Positions 12,591 to 64,000 of a stretch of 64,000 bases of DNA are shown in pieces (the first letter of the stretch is position 1; the number at the start of each line of letters is the position of its first letter). Source of the DNA: an uncultured Gemmatimonas sp. (GTDB taxonomy: Bacteria > Gemmatimonadota > Gemmatimonadetes > Gemmatimonadales > GWC2-71-9). The stretch spans positions 9,216 to 73,215 of the forward strand of contig CAYTMW010000016.1 in assembly GCA_964439025.1 (NCBI GenBank), written 5' to 3'. Made by a program: the position numbers and the translations under genes. Below the pieces are notes generated by a model, which was not told where the DNA came from, searched no databases, and worked only from the letters and a program-made list of their open reading frames with translations.

Positions 12591-14892
12591 CGGAATCGCG
12601 CAGCGTGCGATCCCGGCTCCGAAAAATGAGCCGCAACGTCACGCCCCGCCGTCCGGAGGGCACCTTGTCTCCCCGGTACTCGTCGATCACTCCGATCGAC
12701 TCGAGCAGACCGCCGGCCCCGTTGCGCACCGCATCCACGACGGTCCCGATCGTCACGGCGGCGGGAACGACGAGCGCGAGATCCCTGGTGACAGCGGGCG
12801 TGACAGGGAGCGGACAATACGGGCGAACCGGTCGCGGCGCGGGATCCACTTCGACCTCCAGGCCGAAGAGCTCCGCCGCCCAGGGCGGCGCGTCGGCGCT
12901 GATCGGTCCCGCGCGTCCGACCTCCCGTCCATCGGGAAGCCGGGCAATCCAGCCCACTCCATCAACTTGCACCGAGGCCCCGGGAATCGCCAGAGAGGCG
13001 GTGCGCTCGAAGAGGCCTTTCAGGTCCCAGAGATCGGAGTCCTGGGGATGGCCCCCGTCGGTCCAGTGCGAAGGCGCGCGGACGCCCGTCACGACGACCG
13101 CAGCAGACGTGCGCTCCACGGGAGCCGCACCGCCGGCTTGCGCCCCGAAGACGGTACCGACCTCGAAGAGCCGGACGTCCCGGACCTGGGCGGTCCAATT
13201 GGATTCTACCTGGCGCACCAGCCCCGGAAGAAGACGGCTCCGGAGGAAGCCGTGATCGGCCGAGAGGGGATTGAGCACCGGCACCGCCTCGGGCGAATCC
13301 TGCGGCCCGAGGGACACGAGAATTGCCTCGTAGAGACCTTCGGCCACGAGCTGGTGACGGAGCCGGCCGAGGGCGATTTCCATCGGGGCATCAAGCTGCG
13401 CGCCGGCTCGGAAGGGCCGCAGTTCATCGGGGAAGTTCGCGAACCCGTAGATGCGGGCGACCTCTTCGACCAAGTCGATTTCTTCCACGAGATCGGGTCG
13501 CCATCCCGGCACTTCGACGCCGAGACGGTTCTCCGCCGGCTTGGCGACGACGGTGCACCCGATCGCGACCAGACACTGCTCCAGCACGTGCACCGGGAGC
13601 TCCACTCCCAGCACCTGCGCGACCCGAGCGGTGCGAAGAAAAATCCGGGATGGATTCGCCGGCTCGGGCCAGCAATCGGCGGGCTCTCCGTCGAGCTTCC
13701 CGCCGGCCACCGCCAGCAGCACCGCCAGACCGCGTCGCAGCGCGTCGGGCACGCCCCAGAGATCGGTCCCCCGCTCGAAGCGCTGGCTCGCTTCGGTGGA
13801 CAGGCCGGCGGCTTTCCGCGCCCGGCGCACGTCCTTCGGAGCGAACCAGGCGCACTCGAGGAAAATGTCGGTGGTGTCCGTGGAGACTTCGGAGCCCTGC
13901 CCCCCCATCACGCCGGCAATGCCAACCGGACCCCCGGCATCGGCGATCACGGTGGTGTCGCGCGAGAGCGCGCGCACCACGCCGTCCAGGGTGGTGAGCT
14001 TCTCACCGGAGCGCGCCAGGCGGGCGGTGATCGCGGGACCCGCGAGCTTCGCGAGATCGTAGGCGTGCTGGGGCTGCCCGAGCTCGAGCATCACGTAATT
14101 GGTGGCATCCACCACGTTGTTGATGCTGCGCTGGCCGACAGAGTCGAGCCTCCGGCGGAGCCACTCGGGCGACGGGCCCATCGTCACACCGCGAATGACG
14201 GCGCCGGTAAATCGGCGGCACGCCGAGCCGGGCTCGATGGTGATGGTGACGCCCGCCGTGATCACGGACGGCTGGACGGCTGGACGGCTCGACAGCTGGA
14301 GTTCGGGCGCCCCGGGAATATCCGGCAACCGGAAGGTCGTTTTGTAGGCCGCCGCGAGCTCGCGGGCCAGTCCCTTGTGCCCCAGGAGATCGGGCCGCAC
14401 CGGGGAGATGTCGAGCACGAGGCGATCATCGTCGAGCGAAATCGCCGAGAGAAATGGCGTCCCCGGCGCCGCGTCGGTGGTGAGCGTCATGATCCCGTCG
14501 TGATCGCTGCCGAGACCCAGCTCCTTCGGCGAGCACAGCATCCCCTCCGACGGCTCGCCGCGGATCGTTCGCTTCTCGATCTTGAGTCCGCCCGGGAGCG
14601 TCGACCCGACCCGGACGAAAGGATATTTGCGGCCCGCCTCCACATTGGGGGCCCCGCAGACGACGTTGCGTCGCTCGGGCGTGCCGTCATCCACCGTACA
14701 CAGGCGGAGGCGGTCCGCGTCGGGGTGGGGGCGGACCGATTCCACCTGCGCGACCACGATCTCCCTGAGGTCGGTGTGCAGCGCCTCGATCGCGTCGGCG
14801 GGCGCGCCCAAAAGCGCCAGTTTCTCGGCCAGATCCCTGGCGTCGAGCGGCCGCCGCAGAAACGCCTCGAGCCAGCGACGGGAGGCCTTCAT
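12517..14892 (-). CDS. pheT: phenylalanine--tRNA ligase beta subunit
   Basis: 791 aa with an N-terminal tRNA-binding domain plus B3/4, B5 and FDX-ACB domains recognisable by eye. Confidence 0.92.
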   Translation of the reverse strand: MKASRRWLEAFLRRPLDARDLAEKLALLGAPADAIEALHTDLREIVVAQVESVRPHPDADRLRLCTVDDGTPERRNVVCGAPNVEAGRKYPFVRVGSTLPGGLKIEKRTIRGEPSEGMLCSPKELGLGSDHDGIMTLTTDAAPGTPFLSAISLDDDRLVLDISPVRPDLLGHKGLARELAAAYKTTFRLPDIPGAPELQLSSRPAVQPSVITAGVTITIEPGSACRRFTGAVIRGVTMGPSPEWLRRRLDSVGQRSINNVVDATNYVMLELGQPQHAYDLAKLAGPAITARLARSGEKLTTLDGVVRALSRDTTVIADAGGPVGIAGVMGGQGSEVSTDTTDIFLECAWFAPKDVRRARKAAGLSTEASQRFERGTDLWGVPDALRRGLAVLLAVAGGKLDGEPADCWPEPANPSRIFLRTARVAQVLGVELPVHVLEQCLVAIGCTVVAKPAENRLGVEVPGWRPDLVEEIDLVEEVARIYGFANFPDELRPFRAGAQLDAPMEIALGRLRHQLVAEGLYEAILVSLGPQDSPEAVPVLNPLSADHGFLRSRLLPGLVRQVESNWTAQVRDVRLFEVGTVFGAQAGGAAPVERTSAAVVVTGVRAPSHWTDGGHPQDSDLWDLKGLFERTASLAIPGASVQVDGVGWIARLPDGREVGRAGPISADAPPWAAELFGLEVEVDPAPRPVRPYCPLPVTPAVTRDLALVVPAAVTIGTVVDAVRNGAGGLLESIGVIDEYRGDKVPSGRRGVTLRLIFRSRDRTLRDSDVEAVMQRIITQLGQSLDITLRTS

Positions 14893-24826: not shown

Positions 24827-24956
24827 GCCCAACTCAAGCGGCTGCGTCGACTTGGTCGAATCTGGCTTCGCGTGGAGATTTGGAGATATGCCGCAGCCCA
24901 TTGCTGTGGTTTTGGGGAAGCGATAGAGTCGGTGTCGGCTTAAGTAAAGGTTATGC
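24827..24956 (+). other. attC-like recombination site (130 bp) preceding the HigBA-2 cassette
   Basis: It starts GCCCAAC (RYYYAAC) and ends ...GTCGGCTTAAGTAAAG-GTTATGC. The arms CTCAAGC..CGAC and GTCG..GCTTAAG pair. The left half is less regular than the right. Confidence 0.5.
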
Positions 24957-25022
24957 CGCTTCGCGTTGAGCCCGTGTTGCACGCCGCCTTCCGCTTCATA
25001 CTACTCAGTATTACATTAGAAC

Positions 25023-25367
25023 ATGGCCGCAGAACGGGCCGAGCTGGAATTCGTCTACACGCCGCTCTTCGATGCGAGCAGCAAAGGGCTGCTCGATGAC
25101 GAGGCCATGCGGCACGTTGAGATGACGTTGCTACAAGATCCCCGCGAAGGCGACGTGGTCGCGGGAACCGGTGGACTCCGGAAGCTCCGCGCGGCCTTGC
25201 CGGGTCGCGGCAAACGCGGGGGTGCCAGGATCATCTATTTCGCCGTGCTCGTGCGAAACCGGGTGTACTTTCTGTTGGCTTATGCGAAGAACCAACGGGT
25301 AGACCTCACTCCGGCTGAGAAACGAGAGCTTCGGGCGCTCGCCCGGTCCTTGGAACAGGAGGCCTAA
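25023..25367 (+). CDS. higB: HigB-2 / COG4737-type RelE-superfamily toxin
   Basis: The motifs GTGGLRKLRAALPGRGKRGGARIIYF...YFLLAYAKNQRVDLTPAEKREL match the HigB-2 pattern (GTGGLRK.R...GKRGG.RIIY...Y.KN..DL). Confidence 0.8.
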   Translation: MAAERAELEFVYTPLFDASSKGLLDDEAMRHVEMTLLQDPREGDVVAGTGGLRKLRAALPGRGKRGGARIIYFAVLVRNRVYFLLAYAKNQRVDLTPAEKRELRALARSLEQEA

Positions 25368-25741
25368 TGGCACACAAGCCGAAGGCGCGATTGGGGGGCC
25401 TCTTGGTGGAGAGCATGCGCCAAGCCGTGGCCATCAAGGAGGGTCGCCTGCGGCCCGCCCGCCGGCACCGGCTCACCTTGCGGGACACCCGTGTCAGCGC
25501 GCCACCCCGGTACGGTTCCTCGCGTATCCGTCGTCTGAGGGAGCGGCTGGGTCTCTCTCAGCCCGTGTTCGCACGGGCGCTCAATGTCAGCGTTGCGACG
25601 GTTCGTGGTTGGGAGCAGGGTGCGCGCGTTCCTGACGGCCCCTCGCGGCGGCTCTTGGAGGTAGTCGAGCGGCACCCGGGGACAGTACTGGTGGCCGTAT
25701 CATCCTCTCGGCCGCGATCCCGCTCCAGAGCAGCGGCATAA
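25367..25741 (+). CDS. higA: HigA-2-type HTH (XRE) antitoxin
   Basis: It overlaps the toxin stop (TAATG). The C-terminal HTH reads IRRLRERLGLSQPVFARALNVSVATVRGWEQGARVPDGPSRRLLEVVERHP. Confidence 0.8.
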   Translation: MAHKPKARLGGLLVESMRQAVAIKEGRLRPARRHRLTLRDTRVSAPPRYGSSRIRRLRERLGLSQPVFARALNVSVATVRGWEQGARVPDGPSRRLLEVVERHPGTVLVAVSSSRPRSRSRAAA

Positions 25742-25815
25742 CCCGCCCTTGAAGCTGACGGCCGCGGGCTGGCTTCGCCGGCGCCGCGGCCGCAGCTTAA
25801 GGCTCATTGTTACCT
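25736..25815 (+). other. attC-like recombination site (80 bp) closing the HigBA-2 cassette
   Basis: GCATAAC-CCGCCC-TTGAAGCTGACGGCCGCGG ... CCGCGGCCGCAGCTTAAG-GCTCATT-GTTACCT. The stem is about 18 bp with one bulged A. The higA-2 stop TAA lies inside GCATAAC. Confidence 0.7.
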
Positions 25816-25859: not shown

Positions 25860-26324
25860 ATGGGACAAGACGAGCCGCTCGTGGCCTCGAATGCGTTTGG
25901 CGGGGCGATTCCGATTTTCCGCGTGGAAAGCCTCGAGGCCTGCATTGACTACTACATCAAGGTGCTCGGATTCACGTTGCATTGGCGTGAGGCGAGCATC
26001 ATGGCCGCCGTCTCCCGCAATCGCTGCGAGATTTTCCCGTGCGAAGGGCACCAGGGCCACACCGGCACGTGGGCATGGATCGGCGTCACCGACGCGGAGT
26101 CGCTCTGTGCTGAGTTCCGGCAGAGAGGGGCCCGGGTGCGGCATCCGCCGACCAACTATCCCTGGGCGTACGAGATGCAGGTCGAGGATCCCGAGGGCAA
26201 CGTGCTCCGGTTCGGCTCGGACCCGAAGCCCGATGAGCCATTCGGACCATGGCTCGACATGCGGGGCGCCACCTGGGTGCACTCGCCCGGCGGCGGGTGG
26301 ATGCGCGCTGAGCCTCGCGCATGA
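25860..26324 (+). CDS. VOC family (glyoxalase/bleomycin-resistance) protein
   Basis: 154 aa; YYIKVLGFTLHW ... WAYEMQVEDPEGNVLRFG is typical of bleomycin-resistance/glyoxalase folds. Confidence 0.7.
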   Translation: MGQDEPLVASNAFGGAIPIFRVESLEACIDYYIKVLGFTLHWREASIMAAVSRNRCEIFPCEGHQGHTGTWAWIGVTDAESLCAEFRQRGARVRHPPTNYPWAYEMQVEDPEGNVLRFGSDPKPDEPFGPWLDMRGATWVHSPGGGWMRAEPRA

Positions 26325-60728: not shown

Positions 60729-60802
60729 GGGCGATTAGCTCAGCTGGTTAGAGCGCGCGCCTCACATGCGCGAGGTCGGGGGTTCGAGCCCCTCATCGCC
60801 CA
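60729..60802 (+). tRNA. tRNA-Val (anticodon CAC), no encoded CCA
   Basis: Folded by hand: acceptor GGGCGAT/ATCGCCC+A, D arm GCTC-AGCTGGTTA-GAGC, anticodon arm CGCGC-CTCACAT-GCGCG, variable loop AGGTC, T arm GGGGG-TTCGAGC-CCCTC. Total 74 nt. Confidence 0.88.
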
Positions 60803-60808
60803 TGCTCG

Positions 60809-60855
60809 AACGAAGCAGCCCCGCCGGCGCTTACCGCCGGTGGGGCTGCTTCGTT
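60809..60855 (+). terminator. long GC-rich hairpin directly 3' of tRNA-Val (terminator-like, weak U-tract)
   Basis: AACGAAGCAGCCCC-G-CCGGCG-CTTAC-CGCCGG-T-GGGGCTGCTTCGTT gives a 20-bp interrupted stem, followed by GTG. Confidence 0.45.
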
Positions 60856-61020
60856 GTGCCAGACCGGGCGCGCGGTCGTCTCAGTCAGCGTGCCAGAAGG
60901 GCGCGGTGCGCCGGCACCGTCCAACCCTCCGCGCGCTTCGCGTCCAGTCCGAGTCCCAGAGCTCCATGCTGGTTATCCGCCACCGGCCAAGAAAGGCGGA
61001 GCGCGTCGTCACTTATCGCA

Positions 61021-61317
61021 CTACCCGCTGGTGCTGCTGCCGGTCGACCCAGGTTGGTATCGTCGGCGGAGGACCAGTGCTGCAGACTCCGACCGCACCG
61101 CCGAATCCACCGCTCGTCTTTCCTGCTCACACCATGCCTGGAGTTCGGCTGTCACACCAGCCTCAGTAAGCGTGCGAAGGCCCTTGTTGACAACTCGAAG
61201 CCAGTCGATGTACGGGGGCTCAAGTTGGTCCGGGTCGGCAGCGATGGCACGGAGCTTGTGCCGGTCGGGCTCGTTGTACCAGGCAACGCCGACTCTCGTT
61301 TCGGGTGACCGCTGCAT
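61021..61317 (-). CDS. hypothetical small protein (cassette-like ORF)
   Basis: 98-aa ORF (MQRSPETRVGVAWYNEPDRHKLRAIAADPDQLEPPYIDWL...AELQAWCEQ...) with plausible protein composition. It is preceded at 43 nt by an attC-like right end. No family recognised. Confidence 0.4.
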   Translation of the reverse strand: MQRSPETRVGVAWYNEPDRHKLRAIAADPDQLEPPYIDWLRVVNKGLRTLTEAGVTAELQAWCEQERRAVDSAVRSESAALVLRRRYQPGSTGSSTSG

Positions 61318-61602
61318 CGCTAAGACTCCGTGTGAAGAACTGGACTCCGATCGGCGCGCGCCGAACGACTTGCGCTTCAGCTGCGGGGCGTGCTATGGCA
61401 GGCTCGGCTCAGGCTCTGTGATGCCAACGGCCGGGGACGCCGCGCCCGCGCACCGTCAAAGCGCCAACCGCCCGCGTGTACCGGGGGGCCGCAAACACTC
61501 AGAGAGGGCCTGCCGACAGTATCCCCGGGGCGGGGCCTTTCCCACCAATCCAATGGGCTGGGAATTGAATGATCGGTTTCCGCATAACGAACAGCGTTAT
61601 GC

Positions 61603-61684
61603 TGCCAACGCCCAAATGAAATGCGGCCGCGGCGCGGCCGCTACCGATAGGCCTGCGTTGGTCAGTATCAACGCGCGGTTAGAC
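61603..61684 (-). other. degenerate attC-like site after the beta-propeller ORF
   Basis: The minus strand reads GTCTAAC-CGCGCGTTGATACTGACCAACGC ... GCGGCCGCGCCGCGGCCGC ... GCGTTGGCA. The inverse core is perfect and the right end is imperfect. Confidence 0.5.
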
Positions 61685-61693
61685 CGCAGTTGG

Positions 61694-62929
61694 CTAGTGA
61701 CGACTGATGAATCCATAGACGCGGACGTGCTGCACATCATCCGTGTCCATCCAAGTGCCAATGGCATACTCGGGCGTAATCTGGGTCGGCGTGAACCGCG
61801 CCGGCATCTGAACCGCACCCTGCCAGGTACCGCTGGAATCGAAGACTTCGAAGGTCGCGTCATCAGGGTGGGCAGGCTCAGAATACCTGCGAATCCACAG
61901 GGATCCATCTGCGCTAACGAGGATGCCGGCATACGCGGGCTTCATACTTGGGTAGGGTGCATCCTTGAGTGTCTCGAGGTACCGGTTACGCCTCGCCTCC
62001 GATCCCGGTTCCCATCCTGCGCCCGCACGTTTTACGTAGGCGTCAATGTCAGCGGCGGTCACTGGCAGAGGCGTTGCAGTCCATCGCACAACGCGCTTCA
62101 GCTTGCCATCGGCCTGCTTGACCAACACTTCTGGTCTATCCGCCGTCCCCACGACTACGAGCAACTGGTGCGCGACTGCGAAGAGATTTTTGCCAAACGG
62201 GCGATCCGATACGCTGACGCGCTTCTCGCCGCGCACGATCCAGTCTTCATGGCCAGGATATCGCCCTACCGAGCCGCTCACTTGCCCCAACGCATCGTAG
62301 ACCACGACCGAAACAGTGTCACGATGCACTCCGGCCCTCGAGGTCGTCGTCACTGCGTTCTGGGTGCGGGCGACTAGGCGTCCGTCGGCCAACACCCCAA
62401 GGGGGCGGAGTCCGGCCTGTTCGCCGGGTACTCCCAACCACGTTGAGCGCTGAAAGGTACCGTCGGGTGAGAAGACGGAGACCCGCAGCAGGCTCCAGTC
62501 GTACGTGCGAAGCGTGTCGCCGACACCGACGTGCAGCCAGGCAAGCGAGCGGAATTCCCCTGGCCCGTCCCCGCTGCGTCCGATCGACTTCTGCCATGTG
62601 CCCCGTGAGTCGAAAACGCGAAGTTCGTGCGATCCGCTGTTGGCAACAACAAGTCTCCCATCGGAGAGGCGAACTGGGAACACAAATCCGCTGAATTCTT
62701 CGTGAGCACGGCCAGAAACCCGCCCAAGGTCAATGACGGGCGCCGAGTCGAGCGTGAACGGGGCTTGTGCTGAGGCCGGCGAGATGTTCTCGACGATTTG
62801 TACGCCGAGGCTATCGCGCACTATGCTTTTGCCGCCCTCGCCGTCCATAGCCACGCACCCGATCGCAACGACGCCGGCTATCACACACGGCCAAGGTGGC
62901 ACGAGCGCTTTCAGCGTCAATTCGTTCAC
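61694..62929 (-). CDS. 6-bladed beta-propeller lipoprotein (NHL/TolB-like), function unknown
   Basis: Lipobox VVAIGC with repeated blade motifs (SDGRLVVANSGSHELRVFDSRGTW, GDGPGEFRS, ADGSLWIRR, FEVFDSSGTW). The start is GTG 62929 or TTG 62920 (AAGGAG 8 nt upstream). Confidence 0.7.
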   Translation of the reverse strand: MNELTLKALVPPWPCVIAGVVAIGCVAMDGEGGKSIVRDSLGVQIVENISPASAQAPFTLDSAPVIDLGRVSGRAHEEFSGFVFPVRLSDGRLVVANSGSHELRVFDSRGTWQKSIGRSGDGPGEFRSLAWLHVGVGDTLRTYDWSLLRVSVFSPDGTFQRSTWLGVPGEQAGLRPLGVLADGRLVARTQNAVTTTSRAGVHRDTVSVVVYDALGQVSGSVGRYPGHEDWIVRGEKRVSVSDRPFGKNLFAVAHQLLVVVGTADRPEVLVKQADGKLKRVVRWTATPLPVTAADIDAYVKRAGAGWEPGSEARRNRYLETLKDAPYPSMKPAYAGILVSADGSLWIRRYSEPAHPDDATFEVFDSSGTWQGAVQMPARFTPTQITPEYAIGTWMDTDDVQHVRVYGFISRH

Positions 62930-62949
62930 TCCTTTCTCCGGCTGCTGCG

Positions 62950-63070
62950 GTCTAACGGGCTGCGCTTCTGCTGCGGGGGCCTGCCGAAGCCGCCGCCAGC
63001 CACCCCAACAAGCATAACCGGCGGCGGCCGAAGCGCTTAGGGCCCCGGCAGCTGCAAGCGCGGGTTAGGT
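62950..63070 (-). other. attC site (121 bp) after the OMP ORF
   Basis: The minus strand reads ACCTAAC-CCGCGCTTGCAGCTGCCGGGGCC ... GGCCCCCGCAGCAGAAGCGCAGCCC-GTTAGAC. There is an additional inner 9-bp stem GCCGCCGCC/GGCGGCGGC. Confidence 0.75.
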
Positions 63071-63077
63071 TGCGCGG

Positions 63078-63641
63078 TCAGTGATACCGTACGCGTGCTC
63101 CAAGCCCCATCGAGCGATACTGTGTACCGCCACCTGTGGACTGAGCCCACCAGATTGCTGGGCCAATGCTCCAGCGCGTGCCGCTCCGAAAGTCGATCCC
63201 GACGCTCAGGTCGAAGCCATTCGCCCACTCGCTATCGTAGCGAGGGCAAGAGAACGACACAGTAACGCAGTCCACAGCCTGAAAACCCTGCACACGACCG
63301 AGGCCGCCGCGAATATGCACTTGGGCGCGTTGACCCCACTGTACGGTGGGACCGACCGTGAGGGCCCTAAATGGCTGCCTGATCTCAAGAGTTGAGCGCA
63401 GGCTGGCATCCACGGCGAAATGATCGCTGATCGCGATCCCTACATTGACTGCGGCGAGGATGTTCTTCGAGTGAGTAGCGGCAAAGTTGCTCGTGGGCGG
63501 GCTGGTCTGGATGCGAATCCGAGTCCGGAGGTCGCTCACACCGAGCGTCGCCGTCGCATAGGGTGCTATTCTGGCCTGAGCCTGAGCTTCATTGATGCTG
63601 TGCCCCAACACGAAGACCAGGAAAAGCAAACGCGCCGACAT
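63078..63641 (-). CDS. small outer-membrane beta-barrel protein (OmpW/OmpA-beta-barrel-like)
   Basis: Signal peptide MSARLLFLVFVLGHSINEAQAQA, alternating beta-strand pattern, and C-terminal ...GLGARVRYH. Confidence 0.6.
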   Translation of the reverse strand: MSARLLFLVFVLGHSINEAQAQARIAPYATATLGVSDLRTRIRIQTSPPTSNFAATHSKNILAAVNVGIAISDHFAVDASLRSTLEIRQPFRALTVGPTVQWGQRAQVHIRGGLGRVQGFQAVDCVTVSFSCPRYDSEWANGFDLSVGIDFRSGTRWSIGPAIWWAQSTGGGTQYRSMGLGARVRYH

Positions 63642-63692
63642 GATGCCTCTTCCTCGGGGGACGAGTGGTTGCGAACCGATACGGCTGTCGCA

Positions 63693-63779
63693 ACCTAACG
63701 GACTGCGCTTCTGCTGCGGCCGCGATAGCCGACGGGCGACATCCAGCGCGCGGCCGTCTGCAGCAAGCGCGGGTTAGGC
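63693..63779 (-). other. attC site (87 bp) after the DUF3303-like ORF
   Basis: The minus strand reads GCCTAAC-CCGCGCTTGCTGCAGACGGCCGCGCG ... CGCGGCCGCAGCAGAAGCGCAGTCC-GTTAGGT. Both core heptamers fit RYYYAAC / GTTRRRY perfectly. Confidence 0.75.
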
Positions 63780-63790
63780 CGACCGATGCT

Positions 63791-64000
63791 TTACGGCACT
63801 AACCGAGAAGCGAGACGCTCCTGGACTTGGGCCGAGGAAAGCACCGGCATGACCTCACAATCCATCAGGTCGGACCACTGCGCCGTCCATTGCTCGACCA
63901 ACCCGCGATCGGCAGCTTCCATTACCTGATAGCACCGAGTCAGATCTTCCGTAATCCAGCTCGAGATGTAGCTGAGGCCTTCAGGCATGAGGCGGCCCTC
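63791..64000 (-). CDS. DUF3303-like small protein, N-terminus beyond window
   Basis: The frame is open to the window edge (...EGRLMPEGLSYISSWITEDLTRCYQVMEAADRGLVEQWTAQWSDLMDCEVMPVL). The pattern PEGL.Y..SW....CFQ.ME..D......W.DL...E..PV is recalled for DUF3303. Assignment is tentative. Confidence 0.45.
   Translation of the reverse strand, partial: EGRLMPEGLSYISSWITEDLTRCYQVMEAADRGLVEQWTAQWSDLMDCEVMPVLSSAQVQERLASRLVP

Follow-up and report, generated by a model that had tools for sequence, protein, structure and literature searches.

Evidence for the promoter-distal end of an integron gene-cassette array beside a tRNA-Val gene in an uncultured Gemmatimonadales bacterium

The Vibrio superintegron and the integrons of Xanthomonas possess long arrays of gene cassettes in one orientation, separated by homogeneous, lineage-specific attC sites. 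The cassettes of such sedentary integrons are mostly of unknown function, with toxin-antitoxin pairs among them, and the distal ones are presumed to be silent and free to decay. It is the bottom strand of an attC site that is recombinogenic. The subject of the present work is a probable cassette array at the end of a 64,000-nucleotide stretch of DNA (hereafter the window; contig CAYTMW010000016.1, positions 9,216 to 73,215, assembly GCA_964439025.1) from an uncultured Gemmatimonas sp., in which a sequence-only reading had proposed integron cassettes adjacent to a tRNA-Val gene. A folded attC has an R box, an unpaired central spacer and an L box or stem, one arm of which bears extrahelical bases, and its tip is variable (PMC4889954, Fig. 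2). Clusters of attC sites and single attC sites without an integron-integrase are known as CALINs and SALINs, respectively (PMC4889954, PMC9024848, bioRxiv 10.1101/2022.09.11.507474). Integrons have already been documented in Gemmatimonadota (PMC8618304, PMC9024848), including that of Gemmatirosa kalamazoonensis KBS708 reported by IntegronFinder 2.0 (PMC9024848), and the array described here therefore adds a further example of a known gene-capture system.

On the minus strand, positions 61360–64000 very probably make up the promoter-distal end of an array of integron gene cassettes that is located on a Gemmatimonadales chromosome and runs on past 64000. Two intact and two decayed attC sites, all co-oriented on the minus strand, were found inside the window and one more past its edge (Table 1), so that five sites of a single orientation fall within approximately 3.1 kb, in agreement with an array defined by at least two same-strand attC sites less than 4 kb apart and co-oriented open reading frames (ORFs). 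The palindromes begin 11, 7 and 9 nt after the stop codons of the partial ORF ending at 63791 and of the ORFs encoding a small outer-membrane protein (OMP) and a β-propeller, respectively; the coordinates, sequences and spans of the two intact sites and their short spacing from the stop codons were thus exactly as had been read from the sequence. The lower GC content noticed in the same reading is also real, the array having 0.624 compared with 0.683 in the backbone, and the difference is seen as well at third codon positions (GC3), with 0.68–0.70 in the cassette genes and 0.86 in the neighbouring backbone genes.

As the cassette ORFs lie on the minus strand, the bottom strand of each attC site corresponds to the plus strand of the window. 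Folded as single-stranded DNA, the bottom strands of attC1 and attC2 form a 6-bp R-box helix, a 3-nt spacer (GGA or GGG) and a long stem with single-base bulges (z = −3.2 and −2.1, respectively), in accordance with the attC-like bulges proposed earlier, and their tips differ. The pair of inverse core and core, RYYYAAC/GTTRRRY, is found at both ends of attC1, attC2 and attC3, and in attC4 at the R' end alone. The near-identical ends and unlike loops of attC1 and attC2, the latter evident also from their lengths of 87 and 121 nt, proved to be a property of these two sites within the window: their common 23-nt right end has two matches in 64 kb, compared with none expected in 100 shuffles, and the exact 14-nt left end is confined to the same two sites. 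Such palindromes are therefore not scattered over the 64 kb.

A covariance model, R1, was built from 51 distinct bottom-strand sites (alignment A1), all of them from genomes other than that of the window. These sites came from a scan of 185,579 species-representative genomes, among which that of the window was not represented, with a degenerate form of the right end (GCAGCWGAAGCGCARNYCGTT), which gave 107 loci, mainly metagenome-assembled genomes (MAGs) of Gemmatimonadales or Gemmatimonas, several contigs having 2–4 copies at cassette-like spacing; the loci and contigs compared are designated by L-numbers. Pairing of left and right ends yielded 66 complete sites of 45–218 nt, mostly 105–127 nt. 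RNAalifold alone recovered the invariant stem and nothing more. A complete attC-style structure was therefore drawn up manually, comprising a 7-bp R box, a 3-nt spacer and a 19-bp stem whose bulges, at columns 107 and 114, are confined to the 3' arm, and it was examined by counting pairs. In A1, 93.3% of the pair cells are paired, compared with 29–46% after the partners were slid by 1–3 columns; compensatory double changes occur in eight pairs (48 cells), and the observed covariation score was reached by none of 500 shuffles. In about 27% of the A1 sites the three outermost pairs of the R box are not formed, which is expected because the last R' bases belong to the next cassette.

The R1 model matches the window sites strongly and in a strand-specific manner, which upholds the integron-array reading as such. 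The bottom strand of attC2 scored 115.8 bits and its top strand 28.2 bits, and the corresponding values for attC1 were 68.3 and 25.6 bits, a difference that measures structural asymmetry and not recombination. In its features, attC2 is typical of the attC family of Gemmatimonadales. The bottom strand of attC3 reached 29.4 bits (E about 1e-7 in a local search), with several stem pairs broken in the alignment, and that of attC4 22.2 bits. Although the right-end motif of attC4 matches exactly, the fold of the entire site is lost (z = +1.5); attC4 is the last recognisable site and hence the distal end of the array. The previously proposed start of the third site stands, while its end, placed near 61603, has to be extended to 61582, so that the mini palindrome GCATAAC-N7-GTTATGC (61582–61602), once listed as an element of its own, is nothing other than the decayed right end of attC3. 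Likewise, the half-site ending at 61360 is indeed a remnant and is now seen in fuller extent as a fourth, decayed attC. By contrast, a poor 60-bp candidate at 60919–60978 has neither an R1 match nor a significant fold and was discarded.

With regard to background, R1 found one match, of 19.6 bits, in about 91 kb of sister-genome backbone and none of at least 22 bits in a control of about 200 kb made up of sister loci, viral contigs and 20 kb of Gemmatirosa sequence preceding intI. A search of the window against Rfam, which has no attC family, returned the tRNA match alone.

The array does not end with the window. Exact-protein look-up of the 187-aa OMP ORF led to a contig of 1471 bp (L001, run SRR6868923) that is 100% identical to the end of the window and extends 485 bp further. 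The opening 96 bases of this contig correspond to the right half of one more attC of the family and end in ...GCAGCTGAAGCGCAGCCCGTTCGGC; the array therefore runs on past 64000, as the sequence-only reading had led one to look for. Another contig of the same run (L117, 2.2 kb) covers the propeller ORF and the 98-aa ORF next to the array, and, like the 1.5-kb L001, it is broken at attC repeats. Exact-protein look-ups of the propeller and of the kinase encoded upstream of the tRNA-Val gene gave no match, and a metagenome scan with the OMP protein gave no relative. Followed toward the tRNA, the R1 scores of the five sites are 41 bits (the truncated site), 68, 116, 29 and 22, and then none. By our own inference, this gradient fits a picture in which cassettes enter at attI and distal, unexpressed cassettes decay.

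Since an integrase cut falls between G and TT of the core, the TTRRRY at the 5' end of a cassette should complement the inverse core of that same cassette; chimeric cassette/site junctions have been described by Cury et al. (PMC4889954). In the OMP cassette, the 5' core GTTAGGT and the cassette's own R'' ACCTAAC are exactly complementary, and so are GTTAGAC and GTCTAAC in the propeller cassette, precisely as had been pointed out for these two. The DUF3303 cassette, with the 5' core GTTCGGC and its own R'' GCCTAAC, has one mismatch. The two ends of each physical site in the window mismatch by 1–2 bases. The relationship extends over the whole family: among 69 cassettes of 34 family arrays, the last four bases of the core match perfectly in 48 (70%) when compared by cassette, as opposed to 22 (32%) when compared by site and 21% for random pairs (Wilcoxon p = 6e-5).

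In relatives, integron integrases are encoded next to arrays of the same attC family. Integrase-like genes were located in five attC loci by a tblastn pre-filter with an IntI1 query, which served for candidate location only, confirmation being provided by TIGR02249. Two complete integrases scored 446 and 415 bits against this model (cutoff 265) and possess the Phage_int_SAM_4 plus Phage_integrase architecture. Integrases adjoin the family in L023, L090 and Gemmatirosa, and in all three intI is located upstream of the cassettes in the same orientation, an arrangement known as the "inverted integron-integrase" (PMC4889954). Co-oriented intI genes stand at L023 978–2097, L090 1746–2801 and L109 19953–21190. 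A candidate attI core, the exact complement of the inverse core of the first cassette, follows the intI stop codon after 73 nt in L023 and after about 270 nt in Gemmatirosa. Every array of the relatives is in one orientation, and three consecutive 8-kb blocks of one 1.1-Mb contig consist of array throughout.

The Gemmatirosa integron served as a validation of R1. The 1.1-Mb replicon of the cultured strain KBS708 (NZ_CP007129) was reached through an integrase protein search against annotated plasmids, and its IntI scored 423 bits against TIGR02249. R1 detected 30 distinct sites of 25–50 bits, in one orientation and all downstream of intI, and none in the 20 kb upstream. BLAST of attC2 against plasmid records showed no similarity, and the validation is therefore independent of sequence similarity.

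Table 1. Positions of the attC sites, cassettes and neighbouring features in the window and in the contig that extends it.
Feature	Position	Strand	Description
attC0	L001 2–96, beyond the window edge		truncated; R1 40.9 bits
attC1	63693..63779	−	intact, 87 nt; R'' GCCTAAC 63779–63773, R' GTTAGGT 63699–63693; 3' end of DUF3303 cassette
attC2	62950..63070	−	intact, 121 nt; R'' ACCTAAC 63070–63064, R' GTTAGAC 62956–62950
attC3	61582..61684	−	decayed, 103 nt; R'' GTCTAAC 61684–61678, R' GTTATGC
attC4	61360..61471	−	strongly decayed; right half ...GCAGCTGAAGCGCAAGTCGTTCGGC kept, left half lost; R' GTTCGGC
DUF3303 cassette ORF, 3' part	63791..64000	−	start of ORF and of cassette past the window; 5' core GTTCGGC at ~64390–64396
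OMP cassette	62956..63698	−	743 bp; ORF 63078–63641, 187 aa
Propeller cassette	61588..62955	−	~1368 bp; ORF 61694–62929, 411 aa
ORF-less remnant cassette	61366..61587	−	~222 bp, from attC3 to the end of attC4; boundaries from R1 matches
Non-cassette segment	60858..61359	−	~500 bp of foreign composition between array end and tRNA; no R1 match
Orphan ORF	61021–61317	−	98 aa, GC3 0.69; no attC after it
Terminator-like hairpin of tRNA-Val	60809–60855	+	last conserved backbone feature; edge of the hypervariable slot
tRNA-Val(CAC)	60729–60802	+	found by ARAGORN and Rfam
Lone cassette (SALIN-like)	24950..25815	+	RelE-family toxin 25023–25367, helix-turn-helix (HTH) antitoxin 25367–25741, attC 25736–25815

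The ORF types suggested for the three cassettes agree with the matches obtained here. The DUF3303 ORF matches Pfam PF11746 with 88.9 bits. The OMP protein has a signal peptide and a sub-threshold match to Pfam OMP_b-brl (18.3 bits); its AlphaFold2 model (mean predicted local distance difference test score 91.2) has eight β-strands, and Foldseek retrieved Ail, NspA, OmpA and OmpX, each with a probability of 1.00, so that on the model the protein is an 8-stranded outer-membrane β-barrel. This protein family has 32 representatives among 1.84 billion proteins. Its closest homologue (L122 392–976, 60% identity) has no attC of this family on its flanks, and the small-barrel family is therefore not exclusively cassette-borne. 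The 411-aa protein, with 27.4 bits against PF17170 and E = 1.5e-18 against NHL domains of the PDB, is by sequence comparison an NHL-repeat six-bladed β-propeller with a probable lipoprotein signal (..VAIGC, lipobox-like as judged by eye), and homologues of it are positioned between attC sites in the arrays of L105 and L056. In the remnant cassette a 58-aa ORF starting with TTG is the only one listed. The idea that the array cassettes are candidates for toxin-antitoxin or anti-phage systems was not borne out, as the PADLOC defence models gave no match with the four ORFs and two of the three cassette proteins look like secreted or envelope proteins.

The window harbours one further cassette, 35 kb away from the array and followed by an ORF of the glyoxalase family (25860–26324). 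Its two overlapping genes match Pfam RelE (39.6 bits) and HTH_31 (36.8 bits), and its attC scored 33.8 bits with R1 on the bottom strand and forms a hairpin with z from −3.4 to −4.2. The TAA stop codon is located inside the inverse core GCATAAC, of which the 5' core GTTATGC (24950–24956) is the exact complement. No second attC was found nearby, within 23.8–28.5 kb. This lone cassette implies that an integrase was active at some point in the lineage.

Sites of the family are found mostly, not entirely, in Gemmatimonadota: outside the window and L001, 47 of 63 belong to MAGs so labelled. The other 16, at loci L005, L046, L054, L057, L058, L073, L081, L095 and L096, belong to MAGs labelled Limnocylindria, Acidobacteriota, Planctomycetota, Gammaproteobacteria, Methylomirabilia, Armatimonadota and Acidiferrales, and reflect either cross-phylum cassette traffic or mis-binned short array contigs. 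Four motif matches in viral contigs were rejected as attC, there being no R1 match among them. Gut MAGs of Lentisphaerae, Kiritimatiellae and Spyradenecus (L002, L008, L015, L022, L031, L049, L076, L077 and L103) have in common a stretch ...ATTAGAA-N-ACGTTCGGGCAGCTGAAGCGCARNCCGTTGCC that matches the search motif and is devoid of the left arm of an attC; this conserved element is unrelated.

The array occupies a hypervariable slot that follows tRNA-Val. The backbone of the window is that of Gemmatimonadales, and the sister genomes, which have the upstream synteny in common with it, display the order kinase (80–85% identical), tRNA-Val on the plus strand, variable segment, tRNA-Met on the minus strand, glycosyltransferase and polysaccharide-export genes. 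The tRNA-Val gene and its hairpin are conserved in L110, L111, L113, L114 and L116. Immediately after the hairpin, at 60857, the nucleotide homology to the closest long sister contig (L110, about 90% identity) stops. The segment between tRNA-Val(CAC) and tRNA-Met(CAT) measures 1.2, 1.4, 6.1 or 8.7 kb in four relatives and is of unrelated content in them, with no attC in the slot of any of the four sister genomes; the slot loci are L110 11178–20056, L113, L114 and L116. L110 contains three further copies of the 3' 44–46 nt of tRNA-Val (GCCTCACATGCGCGAGGTCGGGGGTTCGAGCCCCTCATCGCCCA) in tandem, at 14596, 16979 and 19844, which suggests repeated integration at tRNA-Val and thus an integration hotspot. 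Neither an island-type integrase next to the tRNA nor a further copy of the tRNA-Val 3' end was found in the 3.7 kb available in the window. The only match of the orphan ORF among 5.8 billion proteins is an identical copy from the same sample.

Regarding how such a locus would work, each unit consists of an ORF, probably promoterless, followed by its attC, the bottom strand of which folds into a hairpin with the 7-bp R box (RYYYAAC/GTTRRRY), the unpaired 3-nt spacer, the stem with two single-base bulges on one arm and the variable tip. IntI would bind the folded bottom strand and cut the core between G and TT, and cassettes would be excised or inserted singly, each taking along the last six bases of the upstream core. 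The DUF3303 and OMP cassettes, being bounded by intact sites, should remain mobilisable, whereas the propeller cassette and the ORF-less remnant, being bounded by decayed sites, are probably fixed in place. Recombination at this locus, transcription from a promoter further upstream and the presence of an intI gene would all belong to this scheme. Promoter-like sites are not commoner in the array than expected by chance, which is weakly consistent with promoterless cassettes.

Several points weigh against the assignment of the locus to an integron array. Neither intI nor a remnant of it was found in the 64-kb window, as stated earlier from the sequence, or in the 485-bp extension. The two distal sites score near the noise level, as seen from a 19.6-bit match inside a radical S-adenosylmethionine (radical-SAM) gene. 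The attC calls are those of the custom R1, and the training sites of R1 were gathered with an end motif derived from the window, so that part of the resemblance between site ends follows from the way in which they were collected; this does not apply to the interior structure, the covariation or the Gemmatirosa validation. As GC-rich imperfect palindromes directly after stop codons, the sites might also be regarded as unrelated to integrons, namely as repetitive extragenic palindromic (REP) sequences, bacterial interspersed mosaic elements (BIMEs) or long terminator hairpins with GTT/AAC ends arising by chance. Within 64 kb, however, they are limited to the array and the lone cassette, they keep a single orientation in every array and their R1 scores are strongly strand-asymmetric. 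T-tracts are absent, the matches of a terminator-like scan being sub-hairpins inside attC, and arrays of the family adjoin integron integrases in relatives. In addition, the cassette-wise junction rule holds, which argues strongly against REP-type repeats, and the entire explanation can be considered effectively refuted.

Taking the locus as an integron array, it appears slightly more likely than not that it is still joined to an integrase, in which case intI would, by analogy with the relatives, be located on the minus strand beyond about 64.5 kb. Tentatively, it may also be an orphan cluster, a CALIN, that is, a short series of genuine cassettes without an integrase, which would have originated from breakage of an array or from integrase-mediated insertion at a secondary genomic site and would end shortly past 64.5 kb. 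The lack of intI in both the window and the extension is in line with an orphan cluster, as are the decay of half of the visible sites and the fact that none of the four sister genomes has an integron at this locus. According to published data, integrases also place cassettes at positions other than att sites, and numerous CALINs are of small size (bioRxiv 10.1101/2022.09.11.507474); the lone cassette in the same window demonstrates off-array insertion in this lineage. Nevertheless, the co-oriented sites number at least five and the array continues up to the last available base, the quality of the sites rises away from the tRNA, as expected on approaching an active array end, and the relatives carry long arrays together with an integrase. 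It seems unlikely, though worth considering, that the array, with or without an integrase, was acquired as a block on a genomic island at the 3' end of tRNA-Val. The sister synteny that stops exactly after tRNA-Val and its hairpin, the tandem tRNA-Val 3' copies in L110, typical of att repeats, the differing content and length of the slot in the four relatives and the approximately 500 bp of foreign non-cassette DNA with its orphan ORF between tRNA and array are all compatible with an island; the absence of an island-type integrase by the tRNA and of a second tRNA 3' end in the 3.7 kb speaks against one, and the far boundary falls outside the available sequence. It is still more doubtful that the array, and possibly a whole integron of the sedentary type, is the cargo of an element integrating at the tRNA-Val 3' end, at the head of a slot that tandem att-flanked segments fill in a sister genome. 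If this were true, horizontal transfer would extend to a chromosomal integron platform of Gemmatimonadales as such, and the presence of the ~120-nt attC family in MAGs assigned to at least six other soil phyla would suggest a cross-phylum cassette pool.

The promoter-distal array favoured here leaves the understanding of integrons unchanged. It adds a well-characterised array from Gemmatimonadota, an under-studied soil phylum, as well as the definition of a conserved attC family, about 120 nt long and found repeatedly in numerous soil MAGs, for which a working covariance model is now at hand. This should be of practical use in the annotation of soil metagenomes, in which each attC of such arrays causes the assembly to break. 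Furthermore, Gemmatimonadales integrons use the less common layout with the integrase co-oriented with the cassettes, a cassette array, a gradient of decay and a solitary toxin-antitoxin cassette are seen together in one window, and the tRNA-Val slot is flagged as a hotspot.

Among described systems, the array in the window agrees, within the available sequence, with the working definition of a CALIN, having at least two same-strand attC sites less than 4 kb apart and no intI nearby. The integrase-free span behind this assignment comprises about 3.6 kb on the tRNA side together with 64 kb of backbone, and the array runs off the far end; its status as a CALIN is thus provisional. The lone RelE/HTH cassette fits the definition of a SALIN (bioRxiv 10.1101/2022.09.11.507474). 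The Gemmatirosa integron likewise belongs to Gemmatimonadales, its IntI is 59–60% identical to the IntI of a MAG carrying the attC family of the window, R1 recognises its attC sites, and it has in common with the relatives the upstream, co-oriented intI with attI after the intI stop codon. It differs in having a shorter attC subfamily, with sites of about 97 nt that show no BLAST-level similarity to those of the window, and in that it resides on a megaplasmid or secondary replicon, whereas the array in the window occupies a chromosomal slot by a tRNA gene with no integrase visible. With the chromosomal integrons of Vibrio and Xanthomonas the Gemmatimonadales systems share the long arrays of one orientation, the homogeneous, lineage-specific attC sites, the cassettes of mostly unknown function with toxin-antitoxin pairs among them, and the distal cassettes presumed to be silent and free to decay. 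In those integrons, however, intI is divergent from the cassettes, whereas in the Gemmatimonadales relatives it is inverted (PMC4889954), and the attC family described here is distinguished by its length of about 120 nt and its GCGCTTGCTGCTG / CAGCAGAAGCGC arms.

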